A stretch of 64,000 nt of DNA, taken from contig CP060229.1 of the NCBI GenBank assembly GCA_023898585.1, forward strand, positions 247,707-311,706, written 5' to 3'. The notes below the pieces were generated by a model. It was not told where the DNA came from and did no database searches. It saw only the letters and a program-made list of their open reading frames with translations. The position numbers were made by a program, and so were the translations under genes. How positions within the stretch are numbered: the first letter of the stretch is position 1; each line of letters opens with the position of its first letter. This DNA is from Candidatus Nomurabacteria bacterium. Its GTDB lineage: Bacteria; Patescibacteriota; Minisyncoccia; Phycocordibacterales; UBA918. Shown here piece after piece: positions 24,630 through 53,842 of this stretch.

Positions 24630-25127
24630 TGTGGTGGCGGTCGAAGACTACGTAGATAGGTAAACCGAATTGGGTTCTTTGACGGGCTATCCAAACCGGC
24701 ACCACTTCTTCATTGTCCAAAACAAACTGAATATTTTGACAACGCCGGCCAGCTTTGGGTGATCGGCAAGTCGCTTTATCTCATGGCGATCGAAGAAGAA
24801 ATCGTCATCGAAGTGCGCAATTCCGACATCCAGAGACTCCTGCTTTCCATGTTCAAATTCATGCAGGACCATTCTCGCAAGATTGATGTCAACGCGCTAC
24901 TTCGCGACCTGATAGCAAAACAAAAAAGTTATACCATCCCCAATTTACGCTACAACATTAAAACAGGCCAGAATTTAGAGCGAAAAATGTAGCTGGAGCT
25001 GAGTTTTATCGAGATAAGACGAGGACGAAGCTACTTTTGTAGCCGAAATTATGACCTGTTTGTTGGATGGTTGATTGGGGATGGTATTAGGTTGGGAATG
25101 TTGTCGGGAGTAGTTTGGTGGAAAAAA

Positions 25128-34418: not shown

Positions 34419-35102
34419 ATGACAAAAGTATCAGATAAAGAAGAGGCTATCCGGTTACGCAAAAATGGATATTCATATAACTTGATTGCTGAAAAGGTGT
34501 CAGTCTCTAAAAGCACTTTATCACTCTGGTTAGCAAAAATACCTTACTCACCAAACAAAGACGTCGTAAAGAGAATTGGAAAGGCCCATGCAGCCGTTAC
34601 AAAGTCTAAACATGAACAGAAACTTGCCAGTTTCAGGGAGGCAGAAAAGTTGGCCAAAATAGACATTGGTGACTTCATAGGCAGGGATCTTTTTATGTTG
34701 GGGTTGGCTTTATATATTGGTGAAGGTGAAAAAAATGACAATGTAGGAGTAATAAATGCCGATCCGAGAATAATCAGGACGTGCATTAGATGGTTGAGGA
34801 AATTTTATGACGTCCCAAATGAAAGTTTTACACTTGCAATACACCTCTATCCAGACAACAACGTCAAAGATTCACTTGAATACTGGTCAAGACAGACAGG
34901 GCTACCGTTGGTGCAGTTTGGAAAAACTCAGATTGATAAACGGAGAAACAAGCGACATAGCAAAAGAAGTAAGCTTCCTTACGGCACCGCACACCTGAGA
35001 GTCCGCGCCGCTGGAAACAAACAACACGGTGTGTTATTATCTCGCCGTATCCAAGCTACAGCGAAGCTGGCTTTGGAGCAAGAACAATATTTGCGGGTGT
35101 AG
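34419..35102 (+). CDS. HTH plus LAGLIDADG-like motif protein, paralog family member A, abutting tRNA-Gly
   Basis: N-terminal HTH (LRKNGYSYNLIAEKVSVSKSTLSLWLAK) and the motif DLFMLGLALYIGEGEK. Start aligned with the three paralogs. The stop TAG at 35100-35102 lies inside tRNA-Gly, which begins at 35093. Confidence 0.7.
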   Translation: MTKVSDKEEAIRLRKNGYSYNLIAEKVSVSKSTLSLWLAKIPYSPNKDVVKRIGKAHAAVTKSKHEQKLASFREAEKLAKIDIGDFIGRDLFMLGLALYIGEGEKNDNVGVINADPRIIRTCIRWLRKFYDVPNESFTLAIHLYPDNNVKDSLEYWSRQTGLPLVQFGKTQIDKRRNKRHSKRSKLPYGTAHLRVRAAGNKQHGVLLSRRIQATAKLALEQEQYLRV

Positions 35103-35163
35103 TTTAGTGGTAAAACACGACGCTTCCAACGTTGAGTCGGGGGTTCGATTCCTCTCACCCGCA
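35093..35163 (+). tRNA. tRNA-Gly (anticodon UCC)
   Basis: Manual fold: acceptor GCGGGTG/CACCCGC, D arm GTTT-AGTGGTA-AAAC, anticodon arm CGACG-cTTCCaa-CGTTG, T arm GGGGG-TTCGATT-CCTCT. No encoded CCA. Confidence 0.8.
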
Positions 35164-35207
35164 CTAGCACAAGAAAACCGGCCTCTTGCCGGTTTTCTTG
35201 TGCTAGC
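35164..35207 (+). terminator. Perfect 19-bp hairpin right after tRNA-Gly, shared with the tRNA-Pro locus
   Basis: CTAGCACAAGAAAACCGGC-ctctt-GCCGGTTTTCTTGTGCTAG. Confidence 0.6.
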
Positions 35208-35214
35208 AGGTTGA

Positions 35215-35290
35215 AGTGAGCAAACTGCTTTGCTCATGTGAGGAATCGAAGGACGGAACGATGTGAGGAAGAATGACGAACGAGCGAGTC
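35215..35290 (+). repeat. Conserved tRNA-downstream element, copy A
   Basis: AGTGAGCAAACTGCTTTGCTCATGTGAGGAATCGAAGGACGGAACGATG... is close to 53792-53842. It contains the hairpin TGAGCAAA-ctgc-TTTGCTCA and an inverted T-loop-like GGAATCGAAGG. Confidence 0.7.
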
Positions 35291-35987: not shown

Positions 35988-36707
35988 TTACTTTTCAAGA
36001 GAAAATTCTCCAAGTATTTTCTGTTGGTAGACATGACCAGCATCAGTGACTGCAGAGAAGTAGATTTTTTCTACTTTCATCTCCACCACTCCTATCTCTC
36101 GATTAAATTTTGGATGTTTGATTAAACCCTTATGTTCTCCAGCTAAATATCCAATAGACATGTGGGGGTTGTAATTTTTGTATCGGTATTCTGGATGAAG
36201 ATCAAAGGGAATGGAATCTGCCAGCTGGTTGTGTAGAACGAAAATATTTCCATTCCTATCGTAGACTTCGCGAAAAATAGTTCCAGGGAAGTAATTTATA
36301 TTACCCAACTCGACAGAAAATTTAGGGAAGTTCTGCACAACCTTCTCGACAGAGCTACGTATTGAGTCAACATCTCTCTCTTGAAATTGTTTACCCATTC
36401 TACCTGGAATCATCAGTGTTATGTGCATATCCTCACTAGAGAGCCAGAGATTTGCCAGACTAGCAGGAACCATAGCTTGTAAATTATCGGATACAACTCT
36501 CATATGTTCATAACAACTTGGGTGTAACGGTACATTAATGCAACACAAGGTCGTTGAATCTTCCCGCCACAATGTATCACCAAAAGTTTTCTTGGTGTTT
36601 TCCCAGATCTCATCGAAATGTTTTATTTGTACTTGGTGGGTACGCATGCTATCCATTACGTTATTAACATCTCTCCTTATAATACTGCTTTTACAACGAT
36701 TGTTCAC
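35988..36707 (-). CDS. 2H-phosphoesterase superfamily protein (LigT / 2',3'-cyclic phosphodiesterase-like)
   Basis: Two H-x-T/S-x motifs (MHITLMIPG and PHMSIGY) in the expected spacing. The start may be an internal Met. Confidence 0.65.
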   Translation of the reverse strand: MNNRCKSSIIRRDVNNVMDSMRTHQVQIKHFDEIWENTKKTFGDTLWREDSTTLCCINVPLHPSCYEHMRVVSDNLQAMVPASLANLWLSSEDMHITLMIPGRMGKQFQERDVDSIRSSVEKVVQNFPKFSVELGNINYFPGTIFREVYDRNGNIFVLHNQLADSIPFDLHPEYRYKNYNPHMSIGYLAGEHKGLIKHPKFNREIGVVEMKVEKIYFSAVTDAGHVYQQKILGEFSLEK

Positions 36708-36763
36708 GTAAAAACAGGAAGTCAGTTACCTCCTGTAAAATAAATCATCTGATTTTTTAGTAC

Positions 36764-37249
36764 CTAGTCAAAGTCCAAAACATCAGACAGGTATTGTCCT
36801 GATTGTAAGAATACAACGTTGCAACCTTCGAAGTCAGAAAGGATCTCTTTGTTTGTTTTATGAGCATTTGTCATGATCTTCTCGACCACTTCTAACTTGT
36901 TACCTCTATCAATGTACCGTTGTCGATACTCATCTTTGAGTGACTCGTCAGGACAGATGACAGTGACAGACAATCCTCTTTCCCTGAGCGCTTGAACAAC
37001 TACAGGATTGGTTGTGATGAGCACCAAATCTGTGTCCCTGGAACGCTCTATAACTTCTTCTATGTAGTTGTTTGGCCAATCCTCTGCTTTTGTATACGGA
37101 GTTGGCTCTATATCAGCTACAGTTATATCGTCGGACAGACCTCCGGTCATAGTCGATTTGCCAACACCGGGCGCTCCAGCAATGATTCCTACAGGTTTAA
37201 TTTTTTCCACACTAGGAACTCCTTCATTTATTTGTTCAAATTTCTCCAT
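36764..37249 (-). CDS. Small P-loop kinase/NTPase (polynucleotide or nucleoside kinase-like)
   Basis: Walker A GAPGVGKST and a Walker B-like DLVLITT. 161 aa. It lies 56 nt upstream of the 2H phosphoesterase on the same strand. Confidence 0.6.
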   Translation of the reverse strand: MEKFEQINEGVPSVEKIKPVGIIAGAPGVGKSTMTGGLSDDITVADIEPTPYTKAEDWPNNYIEEVIERSRDTDLVLITTNPVVVQALRERGLSVTVICPDESLKDEYRQRYIDRGNKLEVVEKIMTNAHKTNKEILSDFEGCNVVFLQSGQYLSDVLDFD

Positions 37250-37315
37250 AGCTTATTATACAACTTGAATTATCTCTCTGAAGACTTCACACCCTTGTGC
37301 AATCCTCAAAAGATA

Positions 37316-37416
37316 GGGCGAGGAGCAATCTCAACTCGCCCATTACCACGATCACAGAAGGTACACACCAGAGTCTGAGCCTATCTCTACGCTAGAGCTC
37401 TGATGAGGGTTTTTGC
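37316..37416 (-). promoter_or_regulatory. Conserved leader/riboswitch-like element, copy 1, 3' part (terminator hairpin plus conserved core), truncated by IS1595
   Basis: Aligns with 39978-40095, with the core TTACCACGATCAC...GAGTCTGAGC...AGCTCT-ATGAGGGTTTTTGC. Hairpin GGGCGAG...CTCGCCC is followed on the minus strand by UAUCUUUUGAGG, about 65 nt before the kinase start. Confidence 0.55.
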
Positions 37417-38442
37417 GGAGTAAAGAAACTTTTTAGGACCTATTTAGTAGCTCAGAAATAACCCTAAGCCTTCTGTCTCTCCTCAGTCCATGGTGTTGGG
37501 CGATTTTCTTTTTGAGTGACGCAAAGTATTCATCAATAGTATTGGTGGTGTTAGGAATATTAAGCTCTGGATATTTTTGGTAGGTAAATAAATTAGGCAA
37601 GTTTCGTTTCAGTGACATATAGGCACTACGTACATTCTTGTGTGTGTAGTACCAATGGTTAGTACAGGTAACGTACGTTTTCTCAGTATAGAAATTATGA
37701 TACTTCTCCTCCCAAATAGTTAGAGCTTTAGCAAAGTCTTCTTCGTTTGTTTTCGTGAGTGTTAAAGCCAGTTTTCGCAGTTCTTTACCAGCTTCAGTCT
37801 TTGGCTTTCTAGTTAAGTACTTGGTCACGGTCTTCAGTTGATGAAACTGACAGATTTGTACTGGTATATCCTTAAAAACCGTTGCTAATCCACGCCTTCC
37901 GTCCACTACGGCAGCGATGAATGTCCAACCACGTTCTTCTAATAATTTACGAGCGTAGTGATAGTGAGACACTTTCTCAGTCTCAACCTCACCCCACCAA
38001 ATGTTTCTTCGTAAGTTCCATGATCTAAAGACACAGACACCGTAGTGTCGTCCCCAGAAGGTGGTGTCAGCTACGATAACCGTCTTTTGTGGTTGTATGT
38101 TTGGTATTGAGGTTTTAACTTGATCTAATCGTGTACGTACCCAGACGTGACTCTTCTTGTATTTGTTAGACAGTTCGGTCAGCGTTTGTTTTTGATGTGT
38201 ATACTCTTCCCATAATTTATTAACCAACCCTGTTTCTCTCTGCTTAGTTTGAAATCGTTTACCACAATCGTTGCAACCATAGCGCTGTCTACCACTTTGT
38301 TTACCTTTCTTTTTAGTTTGTAATGATAAACAATAGGGACATCTAACTCGTTTATTAACCATGCGAGCTAGATAAACATAAAACCACGGCTATACAGAGC
38401 CGTGGTTTTGGTGTTTTAGGTCCTAGATTGTTTCTTTAGCCC
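37417..38442 (-). mobile_element. IS1595-family insertion sequence, 1026 bp, 8-bp target-site duplication GTTTTTGC
   Basis: Imperfect 24-nt terminal inverted repeats (GGAGTAAAGAAACTTTTTAGGACC on the left; GGGCTAAAGAAACAATCTAGGACC as reverse complement on the right). GTTTTTGC flanks the element at 37409-37416 and 38443-38450. The uninterrupted target sequence is seen at 40089-40096. Confidence 0.8.
37433..38362 (-). CDS. IS1595-family transposase (N-terminal zinc ribbon plus DDE)
   Basis: RCPYCLS...YGCNDCGKRF zinc ribbon, followed by a DDE-type core (IVADTTFW, AAVVDGRRG). Confidence 0.75.
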   Translation of the reverse strand: MVNKRVRCPYCLSLQTKKKGKQSGRQRYGCNDCGKRFQTKQRETGLVNKLWEEYTHQKQTLTELSNKYKKSHVWVRTRLDQVKTSIPNIQPQKTVIVADTTFWGRHYGVCVFRSWNLRRNIWWGEVETEKVSHYHYARKLLEERGWTFIAAVVDGRRGLATVFKDIPVQICQFHQLKTVTKYLTRKPKTEAGKELRKLALTLTKTNEEDFAKALTIWEEKYHNFYTEKTYVTCTNHWYYTHKNVRSAYMSLKRNLPNLFTYQKYPELNIPNTTNTIDEYFASLKKKIAQHHGLRRDRRLRVISELLNRS

Positions 38443-38511
38443 GTTTTTGCCTATGTATGCCACTCATCCCGCCTGTGTGTCGTTTGTTGTCTCAAAATTC
38501 TGGGACTCACC
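38443..38511 (-). promoter_or_regulatory. Conserved leader/riboswitch-like element, copy 1, 5' part
   Basis: TTTTTGCCTATGTATGCCACTCATCCCGCCTGTGTGTCGTTTGTTG...GACTCACC, about 90% identical to 40096-40152. Confidence 0.55.
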
Positions 38512-38534
38512 TTCAACACGAACCTGTATTTTAT

Positions 38535-39902
38535 TTAAGCTGGATTACCTTTTGCAAAAGCGATGTAAAACCAAACTATCAGTCCCAACACACACGCCAC
38601 GATTCCGGGCACAGCGTTCATTAGAAAATCGGTGAACATGCCTTGCCACATCATGTAGAGGTAAACTCCGGTACCAGCCACAGTGACCAGGAACATTCCT
38701 CGGTCCAACGCTCGGCTGACTCCTTTGCTGTAAACTGAAGCAAACAAGGCCGGCGTCAAGACTGCCAAGAGAGTCAGTGCTCCGACAATGAAAGTAACGA
38801 CGTTAGTGATAGTAAGAGCTACAACGGTCAACACGACGAAGGCTATCGCAATCAATGTCCTGAGAGTTCTTCGATAGCGAGCCGGATTTTCATCCTTGTC
38901 AATTCCCAGCCAATTTGATGCGATAGTTGACAGAAACAGATACGCCTGCGTATCAACCGAACTCATGGTAAGGGCCAAGAGAGCCACGCTGATAATCGTA
39001 CCAAGCACCGGACTAATTGCTCCATCGGCCAAAGTATACAGAATCGTGTTCGGATCCGCTTCCGGATAGAGTGCCACCAGCGTCATACCAAAGGCAATAA
39101 TCACAAAGTAGATCGGCAGGTACGTGACACTGTATAGAGTCAGTGACTTGCGGGCAATCTTGGCACTGCCGGCAGTGTACATTCTCTGCCAAATCGCCGG
39201 CAAGGGATAAAACATCAGACCAAAGAAGAGTACTGTGCCCAATACACTGCGCCAATCCCCACCCATCATAAAGCTTTCCGTAGCAAACGAAAACGACGGC
39301 AAATCTGACACAAAAAGAGCCACAATAAGAACCAGAATTATCGCCAAAAATTGAACGATGTCTGTTTTAATAACTGTTTTGTAGCCCCCAACAAACATAT
39401 AGAGCCCGACAATTACCGAAGCAATTATCACCCAAAATGTTAACCCTCCGGCAAACAAGGTGCTGAAAATCTGACCGGTAATATGCAAGAGCGAGGCAGC
39501 TTGGGCTGCTACCAGCACAGTAACTATTACCAGTATCAGCGAGCTGGTCCAAGTCCCGATCTGCGACTTGAGCATATCGTTTTGGGTTAGATAGCGCTTT
39601 TCCTCCACCAATCGGCGGATGCGCGGAGCTTGGACATACAGAATGATGGCAGCTAGAATAATTCCCGCCACGAACCAGTACAGACCAAAGCCCATCACTC
39701 CGGCCAAAGCGACCAGAAAAACCAGTCCTGCCCCGTCTATCGTACTTACAAACAGCGAAGAAAAAGTTCCCAGTACTGATACATTATGGTTTTCACTGGC
39801 GAATTCCAGATCACTTTCACTTCTTAAAGCACGATAGGTAATAAATGCGAGCAAGCCTAAATAAATCAATACGGCTCCCACGACATAGATACTTATTGTC
39901 AT
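38535..39902 (-). CDS. Sodium:solute symporter family transporter
   Basis: 455 aa, about 13 TM helices, with an SSS-family topology and G-rich motifs. Substrate unknown. Confidence 0.7.
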   Translation of the reverse strand: MTISIYVVGAVLIYLGLLAFITYRALRSESDLEFASENHNVSVLGTFSSLFVSTIDGAGLVFLVALAGVMGFGLYWFVAGIILAAIILYVQAPRIRRLVEEKRYLTQNDMLKSQIGTWTSSLILVIVTVLVAAQAASLLHITGQIFSTLFAGGLTFWVIIASVIVGLYMFVGGYKTVIKTDIVQFLAIILVLIVALFVSDLPSFSFATESFMMGGDWRSVLGTVLFFGLMFYPLPAIWQRMYTAGSAKIARKSLTLYSVTYLPIYFVIIAFGMTLVALYPEADPNTILYTLADGAISPVLGTIISVALLALTMSSVDTQAYLFLSTIASNWLGIDKDENPARYRRTLRTLIAIAFVVLTVVALTITNVVTFIVGALTLLAVLTPALFASVYSKGVSRALDRGMFLVTVAGTGVYLYMMWQGMFTDFLMNAVPGIVACVLGLIVWFYIAFAKGNPA

Positions 39903-39977
39903 ATTTAGTTTTTTAATTTTTATTATCTCTCTCTGCGCACTACGTTGTTTTTGCTATGTAATAAGCAGAGAAGATAG

Positions 39978-40152
39978 CGGGAACAAACAACTATTTTGTT
40001 CCCGCAATAAACCTTTACCACGATCACGGCCGGTACACGTCGAGGAGTCTGAGCTGATCTCCCAATGAAGCTCTAATGAGGGTTTTTGCCTATGTATGCC
40101 TCTCATCCCGCCTGTGTGTCGTTTGTTGCCTAAGAAATTACTTAGACTCACC
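39978..40152 (-). promoter_or_regulatory. Conserved leader/riboswitch-like element, copy 2 (intact), upstream of the symporter gene
   Basis: About 175 nt aligning with copy 1. On the minus strand a long-range GAGUCU/AGACUC pairing and a GAUGAG/CUCAUY helix are possible. Terminator hairpin GCGGGAACAAA...UUUGUUCCCGC plus UAUCUUCUCU lies about 75 nt before the symporter ATG. Confidence 0.55.
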
Positions 40153-40215
40153 GCCACCATGCATCCTTGTTGATTTATTACGCGCAGGCAGGAACCAAGG
40201 TCTGCGCGTGCGAAC

Positions 40216-41154
40216 TCACTTGGTCCACAGTTCCAGTTCACGCCGATTCAGGGCATTTACCTGCTCCTCATACACTTCTGAGAAGTCGCTCAACTTGAGA
40301 TATTCCTTACCCCAAGGAGCGTAGAACTGTCCGTCCCAGCGGAGCACCACATTAGATGTGGCGATGACACTGTCCGGGTAGTAGACGATCCTACTACCGT
40401 TCGGGGTTTCAGCTTCGAGGCTGTCACCCGTGTCACTCGGCGCCCACGAGAACTCACTAAGAGAACCTCGCAGTATGCGCACGAACTCCGAGTCGTAGAG
40501 ATTGATGAGCTTCGGGATACCCGACAGTAGCACATCAAATCCTTCCCTCACCGTACGTTCGTCGGTAAAGTTGACCTGACCGCGTTTAACGGTCTCTGGG
40601 AAATTGACCACGAGCGCGACCGACATCGGAACATCATAGTCCCGGAGGCGCGCTTCGAAGTCGGACCAACCGTCAAACGACCACGGACTGAACGCGGTTG
40701 ACACGATGGGATCAAATCCAAGCGCTTTGAGGCGCAGGATCGTATCCCAAGCTTTGTCAAACGAGCCAACCTTGCGGCGCTGACGGTCGTGAGCTTCTGG
40801 CGACCCATCGAGGGAGATGCTGATATGGCCATACCGCGACAAGAAATCCTCTCTGCGCATTATGGTATAACCGTTATCAATGATTCCCAACGGAATGTCC
40901 CTTGCGAAACACTCCTCGATGAACCGCTCGCCTCGCGGTGTGAGCGTGCGACCGGCATAAACCACCGGCACACCCCACTTCGCGACTTGATCCGCCTGTG
41001 CAGTCCAGTCATTCCCATCTTTGGGCGACCCGACACCATGCGGCCAGAAGCAATGTTCGCACTTGAGGTTGCACTCAGCGACCGGGACCGCATCCACGCG
41101 TACCGGGTGCAAACTGTACAACTCGCCATTCATCCACTTTTCAATTGCTTTCAT
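40216..41154 (-). CDS. Radical SAM enzyme (CX3CX2C, no SPASM domain), function unknown
   Basis: AECNLKCEHCFW cluster, a glycine-rich region, IIDNGYT and ISLDGS motifs. Start at MKAIEKW has a good RBS (GAGGAAAGAGAAATG). The gene is GC-rich relative to its flanks. Confidence 0.75.
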   Translation of the reverse strand: MKAIEKWMNGELYSLHPVRVDAVPVAECNLKCEHCFWPHGVGSPKDGNDWTAQADQVAKWGVPVVYAGRTLTPRGERFIEECFARDIPLGIIDNGYTIMRREDFLSRYGHISISLDGSPEAHDRQRRKVGSFDKAWDTILRLKALGFDPIVSTAFSPWSFDGWSDFEARLRDYDVPMSVALVVNFPETVKRGQVNFTDERTVREGFDVLLSGIPKLINLYDSEFVRILRGSLSEFSWAPSDTGDSLEAETPNGSRIVYYPDSVIATSNVVLRWDGQFYAPWGKEYLKLSDFSEVYEEQVNALNRRELELWTK

Positions 41155-41739
41155 TTCTCTTTCCTCTTGGTTAGTAGAAATTGCAGCGCTAGTACTCACG
41201 CTGCTGTTCCTACCAACCAAGCTAGAGAATAGTGACAAAGAACAAATCTCAATGGATGCTCGATCTTTGATCAAGCACCTAATAGAGAGGAGGAAGTGTC
41301 TACTTCCTCCGAAATTTAAATGGCAGCCTGAGAAACGTGGCGCTGCCAGACCCCGCTGCCTTCCCGACAGAGGGCGTCCCTTTCAGGACTTTGGCCTTGG
41401 CGGCTCTTTACCCTTAGGCCCGGCGATAACACCCATGGTGTTCCCCCTACCGTTTGGACCGACGGTTTCGGTTTGGGCAGTATGCCCGCTTGACCGTGGA
41501 ACCTCCTTCCCTTTGGGACCGGCGACTGCTGGCATGGTTCTCTCCTCGCCCCCATGGGCTGTTGCGGGGCAGACGCCCCAGGTGTGATGAACTTTGAACT
41601 GCGATAATCATAGCCCAAAGTAGCTTGACAGTTAAATTATTATGTTGCTTTGTGTGCTAATTGGTATAATTACTTTGTTTATTGGGCTTTTTTGGAGTTT
41701 ATGTATTGACGGATTTCCCGTTATTTTTATAATAGAAGG

Positions 41740-42561
41740 ATGTCTAAAGTGACTGATTTAGCACAAACCATTGGCTTGGAAGCCACTGAGTCAACAGTGT
41801 TTAGCTCGCTCTTAGCCGGTGGGCGACAGAATGTCGCCCGCCTCACCCGCGCCTGTGGTGAGCCCCGTTCCACCGTAATCGATACACTCGCCCGCCTCCA
41901 AAAGCGCGGTCTAGTCCGACCAGTCCCAATCGGCAAACACACGGAATGGAAAGTTACCAACGCCATCACGCTGGCGGAGAAATTTCTGCGCGTGGCAGAA
42001 CTATTGCAGGCGCCAGCCGACACTGGCACGCAAGAAAAACATCTGCATCTCCAACTATCACGCGAGTCGGAATTCACCATCTTTGTCGGCTGGCGCAATA
42101 TGATCGCTATCTACAAGCGCGAAATGATCGCCCACGCAAACCAACGTCTTTTGGCAATGCAAAGTGCATCTTCAATCAAGACGGCTTTAGAAAAAGCTGG
42201 TTCTGACGATTTCATACCGGTCAACGATGCCATTCGTGAACACAAGGTAATCATCGAAGCAGTGATTGGCGAAGGGATGTTGAAGTGGTACACCGAACAA
42301 GATCCAAATTGGGTAAAAAGCCTTGAGGGCCGAACGATCGCCTACCGAGTGGTCGAAGACGAACTTCTCGACTTCACCGCCGAACTACTAATATTCAACA
42401 ACCTATTCTTGCTCGTGAACTGGCAAGAGGAAGTGCTGATCCTCATCAAAAACCAACAAATGCTCAACATGATGAAAAAGCTTCATACTCTCATGTATGA
42501 AACCGGCCATCAGTTTGATCAAAATGAGTATTTGCGTAAAGTATTGGAAAATAGGAAGTGA
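41740..42561 (+). CDS. TrmB-like / MarR-type winged-helix transcriptional regulator
   Basis: N-terminal wHTH (ESTVFSSLLAGGRQNVARLTRACGEPRSTVIDTLARLQKRGLV). 273 aa. Confidence 0.6.
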   Translation: MSKVTDLAQTIGLEATESTVFSSLLAGGRQNVARLTRACGEPRSTVIDTLARLQKRGLVRPVPIGKHTEWKVTNAITLAEKFLRVAELLQAPADTGTQEKHLHLQLSRESEFTIFVGWRNMIAIYKREMIAHANQRLLAMQSASSIKTALEKAGSDDFIPVNDAIREHKVIIEAVIGEGMLKWYTEQDPNWVKSLEGRTIAYRVVEDELLDFTAELLIFNNLFLLVNWQEEVLILIKNQQMLNMMKKLHTLMYETGHQFDQNEYLRKVLENRK

Positions 42562-53245: not shown

Positions 53246-53491
53246 GACTCACCCTCGCTTTTTTTTAACAGGAGTGTTATATTTTGCTGACTTAAATCAC
53301 GTTTGTGGTTTTTGTTTGGGTGATCGGGGTGTATCTTCGACTGCGGGCTCGATACATTCCCTCTTTGTTCGGTCATGGTGTGCTATGCAAGCGTAGCTTG
53401 CATCAAGAAATTTTTACCGAGAAGCCGTAAGCAAGCTTCCGCTGCTCGGGAAAAATTTCTTGACTTCTGCACACCACGACGCTCACGACAT

Positions 53492-53533
53492 CGGGGTGTA
53501 GCATAATGGTAGTGTACGCGGTTTGGGGTCTGT
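53492..53533 (+). repeat. 5' fragment of tRNA-Pro (about 42 nt, diverges after the anticodon loop)
   Basis: CGGGGTGTAGCATAATGGTAGTGTACGCGGTTTGGGG, then unrelated sequence. Confidence 0.6.
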
Positions 53534-53562
53534 CCTTTCAATTTTCATATTTTTGGCTACGT

Positions 53563-53633
53563 CGGGGTGTAGCATAATGGTAGTGTACGCGGTTTGGGAC
53601 CGCGCGGCCCGGGTTCGATTCCCGGCTCCCCGA
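53563..53633 (+). tRNA. tRNA-Pro (anticodon UGG); U6-U67 mismatch and two G-U pairs in the D stem
   Basis: CGGGGTG-TA-GCAT-AATGGTA-GTGT-A-CGCGG-tTTGGGa-CCGCG-CGGC-CCGGG-TTCGATT-CCCGG-CTCCCCG-A. The architecture parallels E. coli tRNA-Pro(UGG). Confidence 0.7.
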
Positions 53634-53704
53634 CGTAGCCCGAAATGGAAATTGAAAGAATTGACCAACAAGCTGGGAGCTTGTTGTGGCTTCGAAGAAG
53701 GCGT

Positions 53705-53733
53705 GGCCCGGGTTCGATTCCCGGCTCCCCGAC
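53705..53733 (+). repeat. 3' half copy of tRNA-Pro (T arm plus acceptor 3' strand)
   Basis: GGCCCGGGTTCGATTCCCGGCTCCCCGACA. Confidence 0.7.
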
Positions 53734-53736
53734 AAA

Positions 53737-53778
53737 CACAAGAAAAGTCAGGTTTATTTATTCCTGGCTTTTCTTGTG
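53737..53778 (+). terminator. Hairpin related to the one after tRNA-Gly(UCC)
   Basis: CACAAGAAAAG-tcaggtttatttattcctgg-CTTTTCTTGTG. Confidence 0.5.
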
Positions 53779-53791
53779 GTAAGGAGGGACT

Positions 53792-53842
53792 AGTGAGCAA
53801 ACTGCTTTGCTCACGTCGGGAATCGAACGGCGGAGCGATGAG
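53792..53842 (+). repeat. Conserved tRNA-downstream element, copy B
   Basis: AGTGAGCAAACTGCTTTGCTCACGTCGGGAATCGAACGGCGGAGCGATGAG versus copy A at 35215. Confidence 0.7.

Follow-up and report, generated by a model that had tools for sequence, protein, structure and literature searches.

A duplicated pseudoknot element, candidate small RNA, and a widespread two-hairpin module in a trmB-linked operon of Candidatus Nomurabacteria

Terminator-type riboswitch leaders that contain a pseudoknot (SAM-II, preQ1, fluoride) are among the described systems closest to a duplicated non-coding element in Candidatus Nomurabacteria bacterium (assembly GCA_023898585.1, contig CP060229.1, positions 247,707 to 311,706; this 64,000-nt stretch is called the window, and positions refer to it unless a locus outside the window, designated by an L number, is named). 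Copy A of the element lies upstream of a sodium:solute symporter gene, and copy B lies upstream of genes for a P-loop kinase-like protein and a 2H phosphoesterase. As in the riboswitch leaders, a pseudoknotted domain is found upstream of, and co-oriented with, genes and is followed by a GC-rich hairpin and a U-tract. The element differs from them in having no Rfam match, no sequence shared between domain and terminator, a linker of variable length, a generic terminator and no common theme among the downstream genes. The second comparison is with bacterial small RNA (sRNA) genes that end at an intrinsic terminator. The element resembles these in its body of about 150-190 nt, a -10-like box, a GC-rich hairpin with a U-tract, the existence of paralogous copies and a transcription factor gene nearby. 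It differs in being known from sequence alone, in lying always inside a co-directional operon and in having no obvious C/U-rich seed. To our knowledge, genomes of the Candidate Phyla Radiation (CPR, Patescibacteria) generally lack Hfq. A third group consists of the processive antitermination RNAs, exemplified by the EAR element of Bacillus, which has a pseudoknot, and by put of phage HK022, which has two adjacent hairpins. Here too, a structured RNA is positioned between the cistrons of a long operon, just ahead of terminators. This likeness is taken as a lead only, and there is no similarity in sequence or model.

We tentatively interpret the element, at less than even confidence, as a small structured non-coding RNA unit, which ends at a terminator module that is generic in CPR and which lies in an operon beside a trmB-like regulator gene. 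The unit would have two separable parts. One is a rare 5' domain, in which hairpin P0 is followed by a conserved A-rich segment that includes a -10-like box, then by the hairpin Pb, a compact H-type pseudoknot and the hairpin Pd. The other is a generic intergenic module, made up of hairpins H1 and H2. The two copies contain the following features.

40181..40208, minus strand: hairpin P0 (CGCGCAG..CTGCGCG), the 5' edge of copy A; conservation with distant homologues begins here.
40163..40180, minus strand: TAATAAATCAACAAGGAT, a -10-like box plus linker, putative own promoter and 5' end of RNA A; 18/18 nt identical in L032 and L053.
40108..40152, minus strand: variable 5' part of core A, including hairpin Pa (40147-40128); about 28 nt are missing in L032 and L053.
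40075..40107, minus strand: hairpin Pb of copy A (GAUGAGAGG..CCCUCAUU), conserved in copy B, L032 and L053.
40044..40073, minus strand: H-type pseudoknot of copy A, with stem S1 (GAGCU/AGCUC), stem S2 (GGAG/CUCC) and loops UCAUUG, AUC and AGA.
40016..40035, minus strand: hairpin Pd of copy A (UACC GGCCGUGAUCGU GGUA); the loop GUGAKCGU is conserved, and a U-A pair of the stem is A-U in L032.
39977..40005, minus strand: H1 of copy A, a GC-rich hairpin of 11 bp with UAUCUUCU after it, resembling an intrinsic terminator.
39924..39976, minus strand: H2 of copy A (UAUCUUCUCUGC...GCGCAGAGAGAGAUA), 52.6 bits with model R1.
38443..38511, minus strand: 5' half of core B, up to the junction with an insertion sequence (IS) in the Pb loop.
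37334..37409, minus strand: 3' half of core B, with the 3' arm of Pb, the pseudoknot (37400-37370) and Pd (37363-37334).
37316..37331, minus strand: H1 of copy B (GGGCGAG..CUCCUCGCCC), with a 5' arm identical to that of H1 in L032.
37271..37315, minus strand: H2 of copy B (UAUCUUUUGAGGAUU..AAGUCUUCAGAGAGAUA), 66.1 bits with model R1.

An earlier note on this DNA had described the duplication as a leader of about 175 nt. Both copies were recovered at its positions on the minus strand (A, 40152..39978; B, 38511..38443 plus 37416..37316). The core of each copy has about 140 nt (A, 40152..40014; B, 38511..38443 plus 37408..37334). A 25-mer from this core occurs exactly twice in the window, with none expected (100 shuffles). 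The copies are 93% identical over a 55-nt block. Identity in the core (GGTGAGTC..GTGGTAA; 5 gap columns) amounts to about 83-85% and not to 85-90% as had been estimated; from the GC-rich hairpin to the ATG, it is just about 50%. The spacing of 65-75 nt between this hairpin and the start codon had been given correctly (74 nt in A, 66 nt in B). Homology of copy A to distant relatives begins further upstream than had been assumed, including P0 and TAATAAATCAACAAGGAT. The loop of P0 (ACCUUGGU) is the same in L032 and L053, while its outer pair is changed from G-C to A-U. The TAATAAATCAACAAGGAT segment, to judge from its -10-like box, may function as a promoter.

An obvious homologue of the core is present in L032 (Parcubacteria group bacterium M6-OD1-1), which was found as a locus of the H1-H2 module. 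A second metagenome scan (GCTCAGACTC-N12-20-GTGATCGTGGT) yielded two further contigs of the L032 type (L051 and L053), with L053 having a different upstream gene. A contig from Saccharibacteria (L044) has kept only the 3' half of the core, consisting of the pseudoknot and Pd, and is devoid of Pb. The window core agrees with L032, L051 and L053 at about 85% of the aligned positions, or at 71% when an indel of 28 nt is counted; the residues missing from L032 (about 28 nt) include hairpin Pa, which shows one A-U/C-G exchange between copies A and B. Despite this core identity of about 85%, the adjacent TrmB-like proteins of the window and L032 are only 20% identical. A divergent trmB-like gene occurs within 1-2.5 kb of every core locus (window, L032, L053 and L044), and the core is placed after the first gene or genes of the operon that is divergent from trmB. 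The pseudoknot domain is an RNA motif that is tied to the trmB-like regulator locus and is the second and rarer of the two described here. The first core patterns had no match in viral contigs or JGI metagenomes. In the loci of the symporter homologues (L001-L004), a search with nhmmer and an A/B profile gave nothing significant, and the core was not found with core model R2. A search for TrmB homologues, aimed at further loci, returned just two matches.

Retained across the copies, with some compensatory changes, are Pb (GAUGAGAGG/CCCUCAU), the H-type pseudoknot and Pd. The pseudoknot reads GAGCU-UCAUUG-GGAG-AUC-AGCUC-AGA-CUCC in copy A. Its stem S2 is AGAG/CUCU in copy B, and L044 has CAGGCA/UGCCUG for S1 and GGGG/CCCC for S2, with unchanged loop lengths. 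The topology is common to A, B, L032, L053 and L044. Hairpin Pd is UACC-GGCCGUGAUCGU-GGUA in copy A, its stem being UAACC/GGUUA in L032 and GUACC/GGUAC in L044. For S1, S2 and Pd, 93.8% of the alignment cells are paired, and five pairs are changed on both sides (five sequences from three lineages). The covariation score is reached by 0/500 shuffles, and slid controls pair at 33-59%. With this number of sequences and lineages, the covariation support for the core fold is suggestive and not conclusive. The whole unit has a folding z of -4.0 versus shuffles. Several unpaired nucleotides are also conserved (loop 2, AUM; loop 3, AGA; Pd loop, GUGAKCGU). The earlier note had named the collection of homologues and their covariation as a check; homologues were collected, and doubly changed pairs are seen. 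Of the two long-range pairings that it proposed, GAUGAG/CUCAU corresponds to the conserved hairpin Pb. The other, GAGUCU/AGACUC, does not hold, the 5' partner being absent from the Parcubacteria homologue and AGACUC being part of loop 3 and stem 2 of the pseudoknot. This helix (termed P1) is present in copy A but is not kept in B, L032 or L044, and the same applies to a long-range helix AAUAAAUC/GGUUUAUU.

As had been proposed, the element is a structured RNA, conserved and strand-specific, that matches no known family. With Rfam 15 and gathering thresholds, nothing but four tRNAs was detected in the whole window. At E<=10, the hits in positions 37200-40300 were limited to three with eukaryotic families, which lie on the opposite strand and are due to chance, and nothing relevant was found on the homologous loci. 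The element is also not a T-box, in agreement with the earlier note: RF00230 is unmatched even at E<=10, and there is no antiterminator complementarity to H1. A hammerhead-like reading of the GAUGAG box was rejected by eye, with the essential CU and GAAA missing. A small protein or leader peptide was rejected as well; between A, B and L032, neither the length nor the sequence of the short frames is kept, and these frames have no properly spaced ribosome-binding site.

The GC-rich hairpin and U-tract that follow the core do score as an intrinsic terminator, as the earlier note had it, but they do not form an expression platform that is particular to this element. Both belong to a generic CPR module that also occurs without the core. 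It consists of the variable GC-rich hairpin H1, the tract CUAUCUUUUGAG and the covarying hairpin H2, which is closed by CUCAAAGAGAUAG; the U-tract doubles as the 5' arm of H2. The loci L001-L004, which lack the core, keep a GC-rich hairpin of unrelated sequence, followed by CTATCTTTTGAG, a hairpin top that varies and, about 20 nt before the ATG, ARAGAGATA. A scan for CTATCTTTTGAG-N15-45-ARAGAGATA, with one genome per species, returned 37 loci. Nine of these are clear modules with a preceding GC-rich hairpin, and all nine are from CPR metagenome-assembled genomes (MAGs), labelled as Kaiserbacteria, Nomurabacteria, Saccharibacteria (four), Parcubacteria group, Patescibacteria and unclassified bacterium. 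The 16 modules that were collected all fold as two directly abutting hairpins. In H2, 93.8% of the cells are paired, and 10/18 pairs are changed on both sides, which 0/500 shuffles reach (slid controls, 40-62%). The base of H2 is nearly invariant (UAUCUUUU/AAGAGAUA, with a U.G pair in 13/16 modules, then one bulged purine, then GAG/CUC). With model R1, built for H2, the gene strand gives 39-77 bits, and the opposite strand, where the conserved U.G pairs become C.A, gives 15-23 bits. H2 is therefore a feature of the RNA from the transcribed strand. The module that follows the symporter gene in L002 and the H2 of copy B have 91% identity. The invariant helix with its U.G pair and bulged base looks like a protein-binding site.

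Model R1 finds just three modules in the window, all in one gene cluster (37259-37322, 39912-39983 and, weakly, 41235-41295), and it finds second copies in L032 and L020. The third one in the window is the following.

41246..41310, minus strand: a third, diverged H1-H2 module without core, upstream of a radical SAM gene (16.6 bits, E 0.26).

Its H1 (41310-41289) and that of copy A are flagged as intrinsic-terminator-like. The module is found immediately 3' of the stop codon of a gene in L002 and L003, and between convergent open reading frames (ORFs) in L025 and L035. In L025, the product of the convergent gene was confirmed as a prephenate dehydratase, whereas the ORFs in L035 have no family match. 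In this convergent arrangement, the module serves the upstream unit. With its GC-rich hairpin, its U-rich tract and its position at the ends of transcription units, H1 has the properties expected of an intrinsic terminator, and the H1-H2 module thus behaves as a punctuation element of 3' ends and intergenic regions rather than as the expression platform of one leader. It shares with intrinsic (Rho-independent) terminators, including tandem-hairpin ones, the GC-rich H1 with its U-rich tract and the position behind genes and between convergent genes. It differs from them in that the near-invariant U-tract CUAUCUUUUGAG pairs with an equally invariant downstream strand, and in having a second hairpin of ~20 bp with a U.G pair and a bulged A. 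With three modules per 64-kb window, it is not the general terminator of this genome.

The module is also reminiscent of integron attC sites and repetitive extragenic palindromic (REP) elements. It shares with them the imperfect palindrome that has conserved ends, a variable center and a base outside the helix and that recurs from gene to gene in a cluster. The attC consensus has R''/R' boxes RYYYAAC/GTTRRRY. This consensus is not matched, no integrase is nearby, the module is kept across CPR classes, unlike the species-specific REPs, and the strand asymmetry points to RNA. The attC and REP readings, and that of an uptake sequence, were ruled out because of the sequence, the low number of copies (3 per 64 kb) and the asymmetry between strands. 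Two promoter readings were also discarded. A fixed -35 box in the H2 3' arm is incompatible with the inconsistent spacing to the -10 boxes (13-18 nt), and GGAAT-N17-GTT, a promoter of the extracytoplasmic function (ECF) type inside H2, fits only L023 and L044.

Three observations were made beside the module. (U)GUUCUUUG/A is found 2-5 nt after H2 in L044, L023, L003 (~612-625), L036 and the window (41232-41245) and is similar to the boxA in antitermination leaders of rRNA. Copies A and B do not have this sequence, which may be part of a U-rich tail or a -10 box instead of a boxA (NusB/NusE). In L036 (~1330-1385), the sequence before the module ends with ...GGGTTCGACTCCCATGTGCTCCACCA, a tRNA- or tmRNA-like 3' end (...GGTTCGACTCCC...CCACCA), though a tRNA or tmRNA was not confirmed by ARAGORN and Rfam. 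The H2 pattern had no match in viral contigs. It also matches a block of ~150 nt, nearly identical in five Bacteroidota MAGs (…GATAGTCATATTGGTCAGGCTATCTTTTGAG…AAAAGAGATA…; L014, L015, L017, L045 and L047, from Saprospiraceae/Haliscomenobacter MAGs), which has no preceding GC-rich hairpin and is unrelated to the CPR module.

The split of copy B is due to a 1026-bp insertion of the IS256 family, located inside the loop of hairpin Pb.

37417..38442, minus strand: IS256-family insertion sequence, with the transposase ORF at 37433-38362.

The target duplication is seen as 8-bp direct repeats GCAAAAAC at 38450-38443 and 37416-37409. The terminal inverted repeats, read from the sequence, are imperfect (GGGCTAAAGAAAC.. 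/ GGAGTAAAGAAAC..). The 309-aa transposase matches NF048019, the model for the IS256 zinc-binding variant, with 311 bits (cut-off 150). Transposase, inverted repeats and the 8-bp duplication together identify the element by sequence as an IS256-family member. Eight other assemblies of the same organism were gathered via identical proteins. In six of these (L006-L009, L011 and L012), one of the two IS junctions is present; the contigs of the other two begin within the core and are uninformative. None of the eight has an intact copy B, and the insertion is apparently fixed.

The genes and promoter-like sequences around the two copies are the following.

38535..39902, minus strand: gene of the sodium:solute symporter family, downstream of copy A.
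35988..37249, minus strand: genes for the P-loop kinase-like protein (36764-37249) and the 2H phosphoesterase (35988-36707), downstream of copy B.
38528..38557, minus strand: TTGCAA-18-TAAAAT, a promoter-like sequence that precedes copy B and overlaps the symporter gene at its end.
37255..37282, minus strand: promoter-like TTCAGA-16-TATAAT of the leaderless type, ending 5 nt before the kinase ATG.
41740..42561, plus strand: trmB-like regulator gene, divergent from the operon of the element.
41625..41641, minus strand: AATAATTTAACTGTCAA, a conserved promoter- or operator-like box of the operon of the element, with exact matches beside trmB-like genes in L001, L032, L053 and L056.

The symporter has just five homologues among 5.8 billion proteins, one of them annotated as Candidatus Pacebacteria. 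Proteins identical to those of the window also occur in NCBI assembly GCA_020428745.1. The kinase has only generic similarity to P-loop nucleoside/nucleotide kinases. Copy B had been proposed to be the leader of the kinase/2H genes. Against this weigh the promoter-like sequence directly before the kinase gene and the fact that copy B is interrupted in all assemblies in which the junction can be seen. In this genome, TAnAAT often occurs 4-9 nt before the start codon (10/69 ORFs), with a peak at 6 nt and roughly 14-fold over other positions (about 0.12 per position), which is a signature of leaderless or near-leaderless mRNAs. Together with the kinase's own promoter, this enrichment means that the "leader" need not belong to the kinase mRNA. 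The -10-like box TAATAAAT before copy A is found again 7 nt before the symporter ATG in L001, and orthologous symporter genes (L001, L003, L002b-type contexts) have similar boxes 6-8 nt before the ATG. The 17-nt box beside the trmB-like genes (AATAATTTWACTGTCAA) is exact in L001 (608-624), L032 (2724-2740), L053 (1797-1813) and L056 (1180-1196), despite TrmB-like proteins that are 20-78% identical. This box is probably the operon promoter and/or the operator of the regulator.

In our reading, the 5' domain would form the body of a small RNA with a length of roughly 190 nt. Transcription would start at a -10-type promoter of its own, or would reach it via read-through in the operon that is divergent from the trmB-like gene, and would end at H1, at least partly, as does that of ordinary genes in CPR. 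The RNA may act via the surfaces of the pseudoknot and Pd on a protein or another RNA, and not allosterically on the terminator. The kinase behind copy B would be expressed from its own leaderless-type promoter. Copy B, one of the two paralogous copies in the window, has been inactivated by the IS256 insertion. The generic H1-H2 module, the downstream promoters and the apparently fixed IS together fit the layout of a small RNA gene, in which a functional RNA body precedes an ordinary terminator.

Several points weigh against this interpretation. The start and end of the RNA, and its existence as a discrete molecule, are predictions from DNA sequence. All known copies are co-oriented with a gene of the same operon and lie 20-35 nt (counted after H2) upstream of it, in the same relative place; such a constant orientation and place is also expected of a cis-acting leader. 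The conservation of H2 as an RNA 3' of H1 implies that polymerase must sometimes read through H1, which fits conditional termination. In L044, the A-rich segment is too near to the pseudoknot to be a promoter, so that P0 and the linker may be part of the RNA. The core is known from just three independent lineages, and its covariation support is thin. Finally, TAATAAAT before copy A is weaker than the usual TAnAAT of this genome.

It is possible, though in our view doubtful, that the element is instead a cis-acting leader or attenuator, in which the pseudoknot/Pd domain binds a small molecule or a protein, sets the stopping at H1 and controls the symporter and kinase/2H genes. Within this explanation, a metabolite riboswitch and a protein-dependent or processive-antitermination element of the EAR/put type would each account for about half. 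The co-orientation directly upstream of a gene, the same place in a trmB-linked operon in three lineages and the read-through implied by H2 count in its favor, as do the pseudoknot fold with its conserved unpaired nucleotides and the terminator score of H1. In addition, the 5' strand of S2 can pair with either loop 1 or the 3' strand of S2 in copies A and B. A terminator-type riboswitch, however, needs a competition between sensing domain and terminator, and the pairing between H1 and core was tested on this basis. Neither arm of H1 beats shuffled cores, 16-83% of which pair at least as well. The linker between Pd and H1 has 2 nt in B, 14 nt in A, 16 nt in L032 and about 39 nt in L044, where it includes a whole extra hairpin. 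H1 varies freely, and its sequences in A and B are unrelated. Given the variable linker, the unrelated H1 sequences and the absence of complementarity, the sensing domain does not overlap or compete with the terminator. The earlier note had taken the regulated genes to suggest a small-molecule or nucleotide ligand. The downstream genes of the four or five known copies are, however, unrelated: the symporter, followed by the kinase and 2H phosphoesterase genes, in the window and a gene for a secreted protein of 85 aa in L032 and L053, while the contig of L044 ends. A location in the 5' UTR (untranslated region) of functionally coherent genes is thus not seen, all the more as the TATAAT box of the kinase is 5 nt before its ATG. 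Further evidence against attenuation is provided by orthologous symporter genes that retain H1-H2 and the -10 box without the core, by the kinase's own promoter, by the apparently fixed disruption of copy B and by the lack of a riboswitch or T-box match in Rfam. What stands of the attenuating riboswitch proposed in the earlier note is a conserved structured RNA with a terminator-like H1; antiterminator pairing, a constant linker and coherent downstream genes were not found. A hairpin and U-tract after a conserved sequence is insufficient to call a riboswitch. The core may still sense a ligand, but nothing found points to one.

A further explanation, which we hold to be rather unlikely, assigns separate functions to the two RNA elements. 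H1-H2 would be a terminator-coupled hairpin found throughout CPR, whose invariant base (the U.G pair with the bulged A) would be the docking site of a conserved factor that decides whether polymerase stops or goes on between cistrons, and the pseudoknot and Pd would form a new sensor, either a riboswitch or a protein-binding element, which feeds into this decision in trmB-linked operons.

Explanations at the level of DNA are less likely than a small RNA or a cis-acting attenuator. We consider it improbable that the core has no RNA function and is a recently spread selfish or duplicated DNA, resembling a miniature inverted-repeat transposable element (MITE) or moving with a mobile locus, in which case its conservation would reflect recent transfer and not selection. 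The contrast between core and TrmB protein identity (about 85% of aligned positions versus 20%) would fit this scenario, as would the two copies in one operon, the orthologous intergenic sites without core in L001 and L002 and the patchy distribution (the first JGI scan gave no hits, the second gave only L032-like ones, and the CPR loci examined contain no further copy). Terminal inverted repeats and target duplications are, however, lacking at the ends of copy A, where a search for inverted repeats (39890-40260) revealed only internal hairpins. Differences between copies preserve the pairing of stems, even in the very different L044, and the position relative to trmB is conserved. The 17-nt operator-like box is equally conserved in the same loci, so that the whole non-coding DNA of the locus is either constrained or co-transferred. 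Least probable of all is that H1-H2 is a palindromic DNA operator, with the core irrelevant, at which the TrmB-like regulator or another factor blocks or activates the next gene: at its base, H2 forms a near-palindrome (CTATCTTTTGAG...CTCAAAGAGATAG) that is closely followed by -10 boxes, the kinase promoter takes its -35-like TTCAGA from the 3' arm and trmB-like genes lie beside several module loci, but the distance between the arms varies from about 18 to 40 nt with a covarying stem in between, the U.G pairs and one-sided bulge are asymmetric, with the strand difference in R1 scores given above, the spacing from H2 to the -10 box is inconsistent (13-18 nt) and several module loci have no trmB within the sequence covered.

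A few observations concern the neighborhood and other parts of the window. Upstream of the radical SAM gene (40216-41274), a GC-rich stretch (41316-41620, minus strand) could code for a short peptide with repeated GPKGKE motifs (MPAVAGPKGKEVPR...IAGPKGKEPPRPKS). The radical SAM enzyme has weak matches to SPASM peptide maturases, and the two might be a precursor-maturase pair for a ribosomally synthesized and post-translationally modified peptide (RiPP). At the homologous position, L001 has a region of approximately 480 nt without a clear gene. Far from the main locus, a stretch of 65 residues (24729-24923, plus strand) matches the C-terminus of the TrmB-like protein of the L032 type with 63% identity and may be a gene fragment or a small paralog. 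The gene after the module in L002 (1606-2391, 261 aa) is related to the last gene of the cluster in L032 (569-1276, 235 aa), with 26% identity (E 1e-11) and no Pfam family. Thus, trmB-linked clusters of distant CPR lineages share cargo genes. Near-identical tandem tRNA-like repeats are found beside annotated tRNAs (53488-53733 and 35093-35263 / 53563-53840). These comprise families of 40 nt and 33 nt, 71-99 nt apart, and a 49-nt repeat that follows tRNA genes at two sites far apart.

Two RNA motifs are new, one widespread in CPR and the other rare; neither has an Rfam family or a description in the searchable literature. Our literature searches found no description of RNA-based regulation in CPR/Patescibacteria, which represent a large share of bacterial diversity. 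The near-invariance of H1-H2 across Saccharibacteria, the Parcubacteria group and related lineages implies a conserved partner in the machinery for transcription or RNA processing. Both motifs can be turned into covariance models for surveys, and either could give a handle on the control of expression in organisms that lack genetic tools such as inducible expression.

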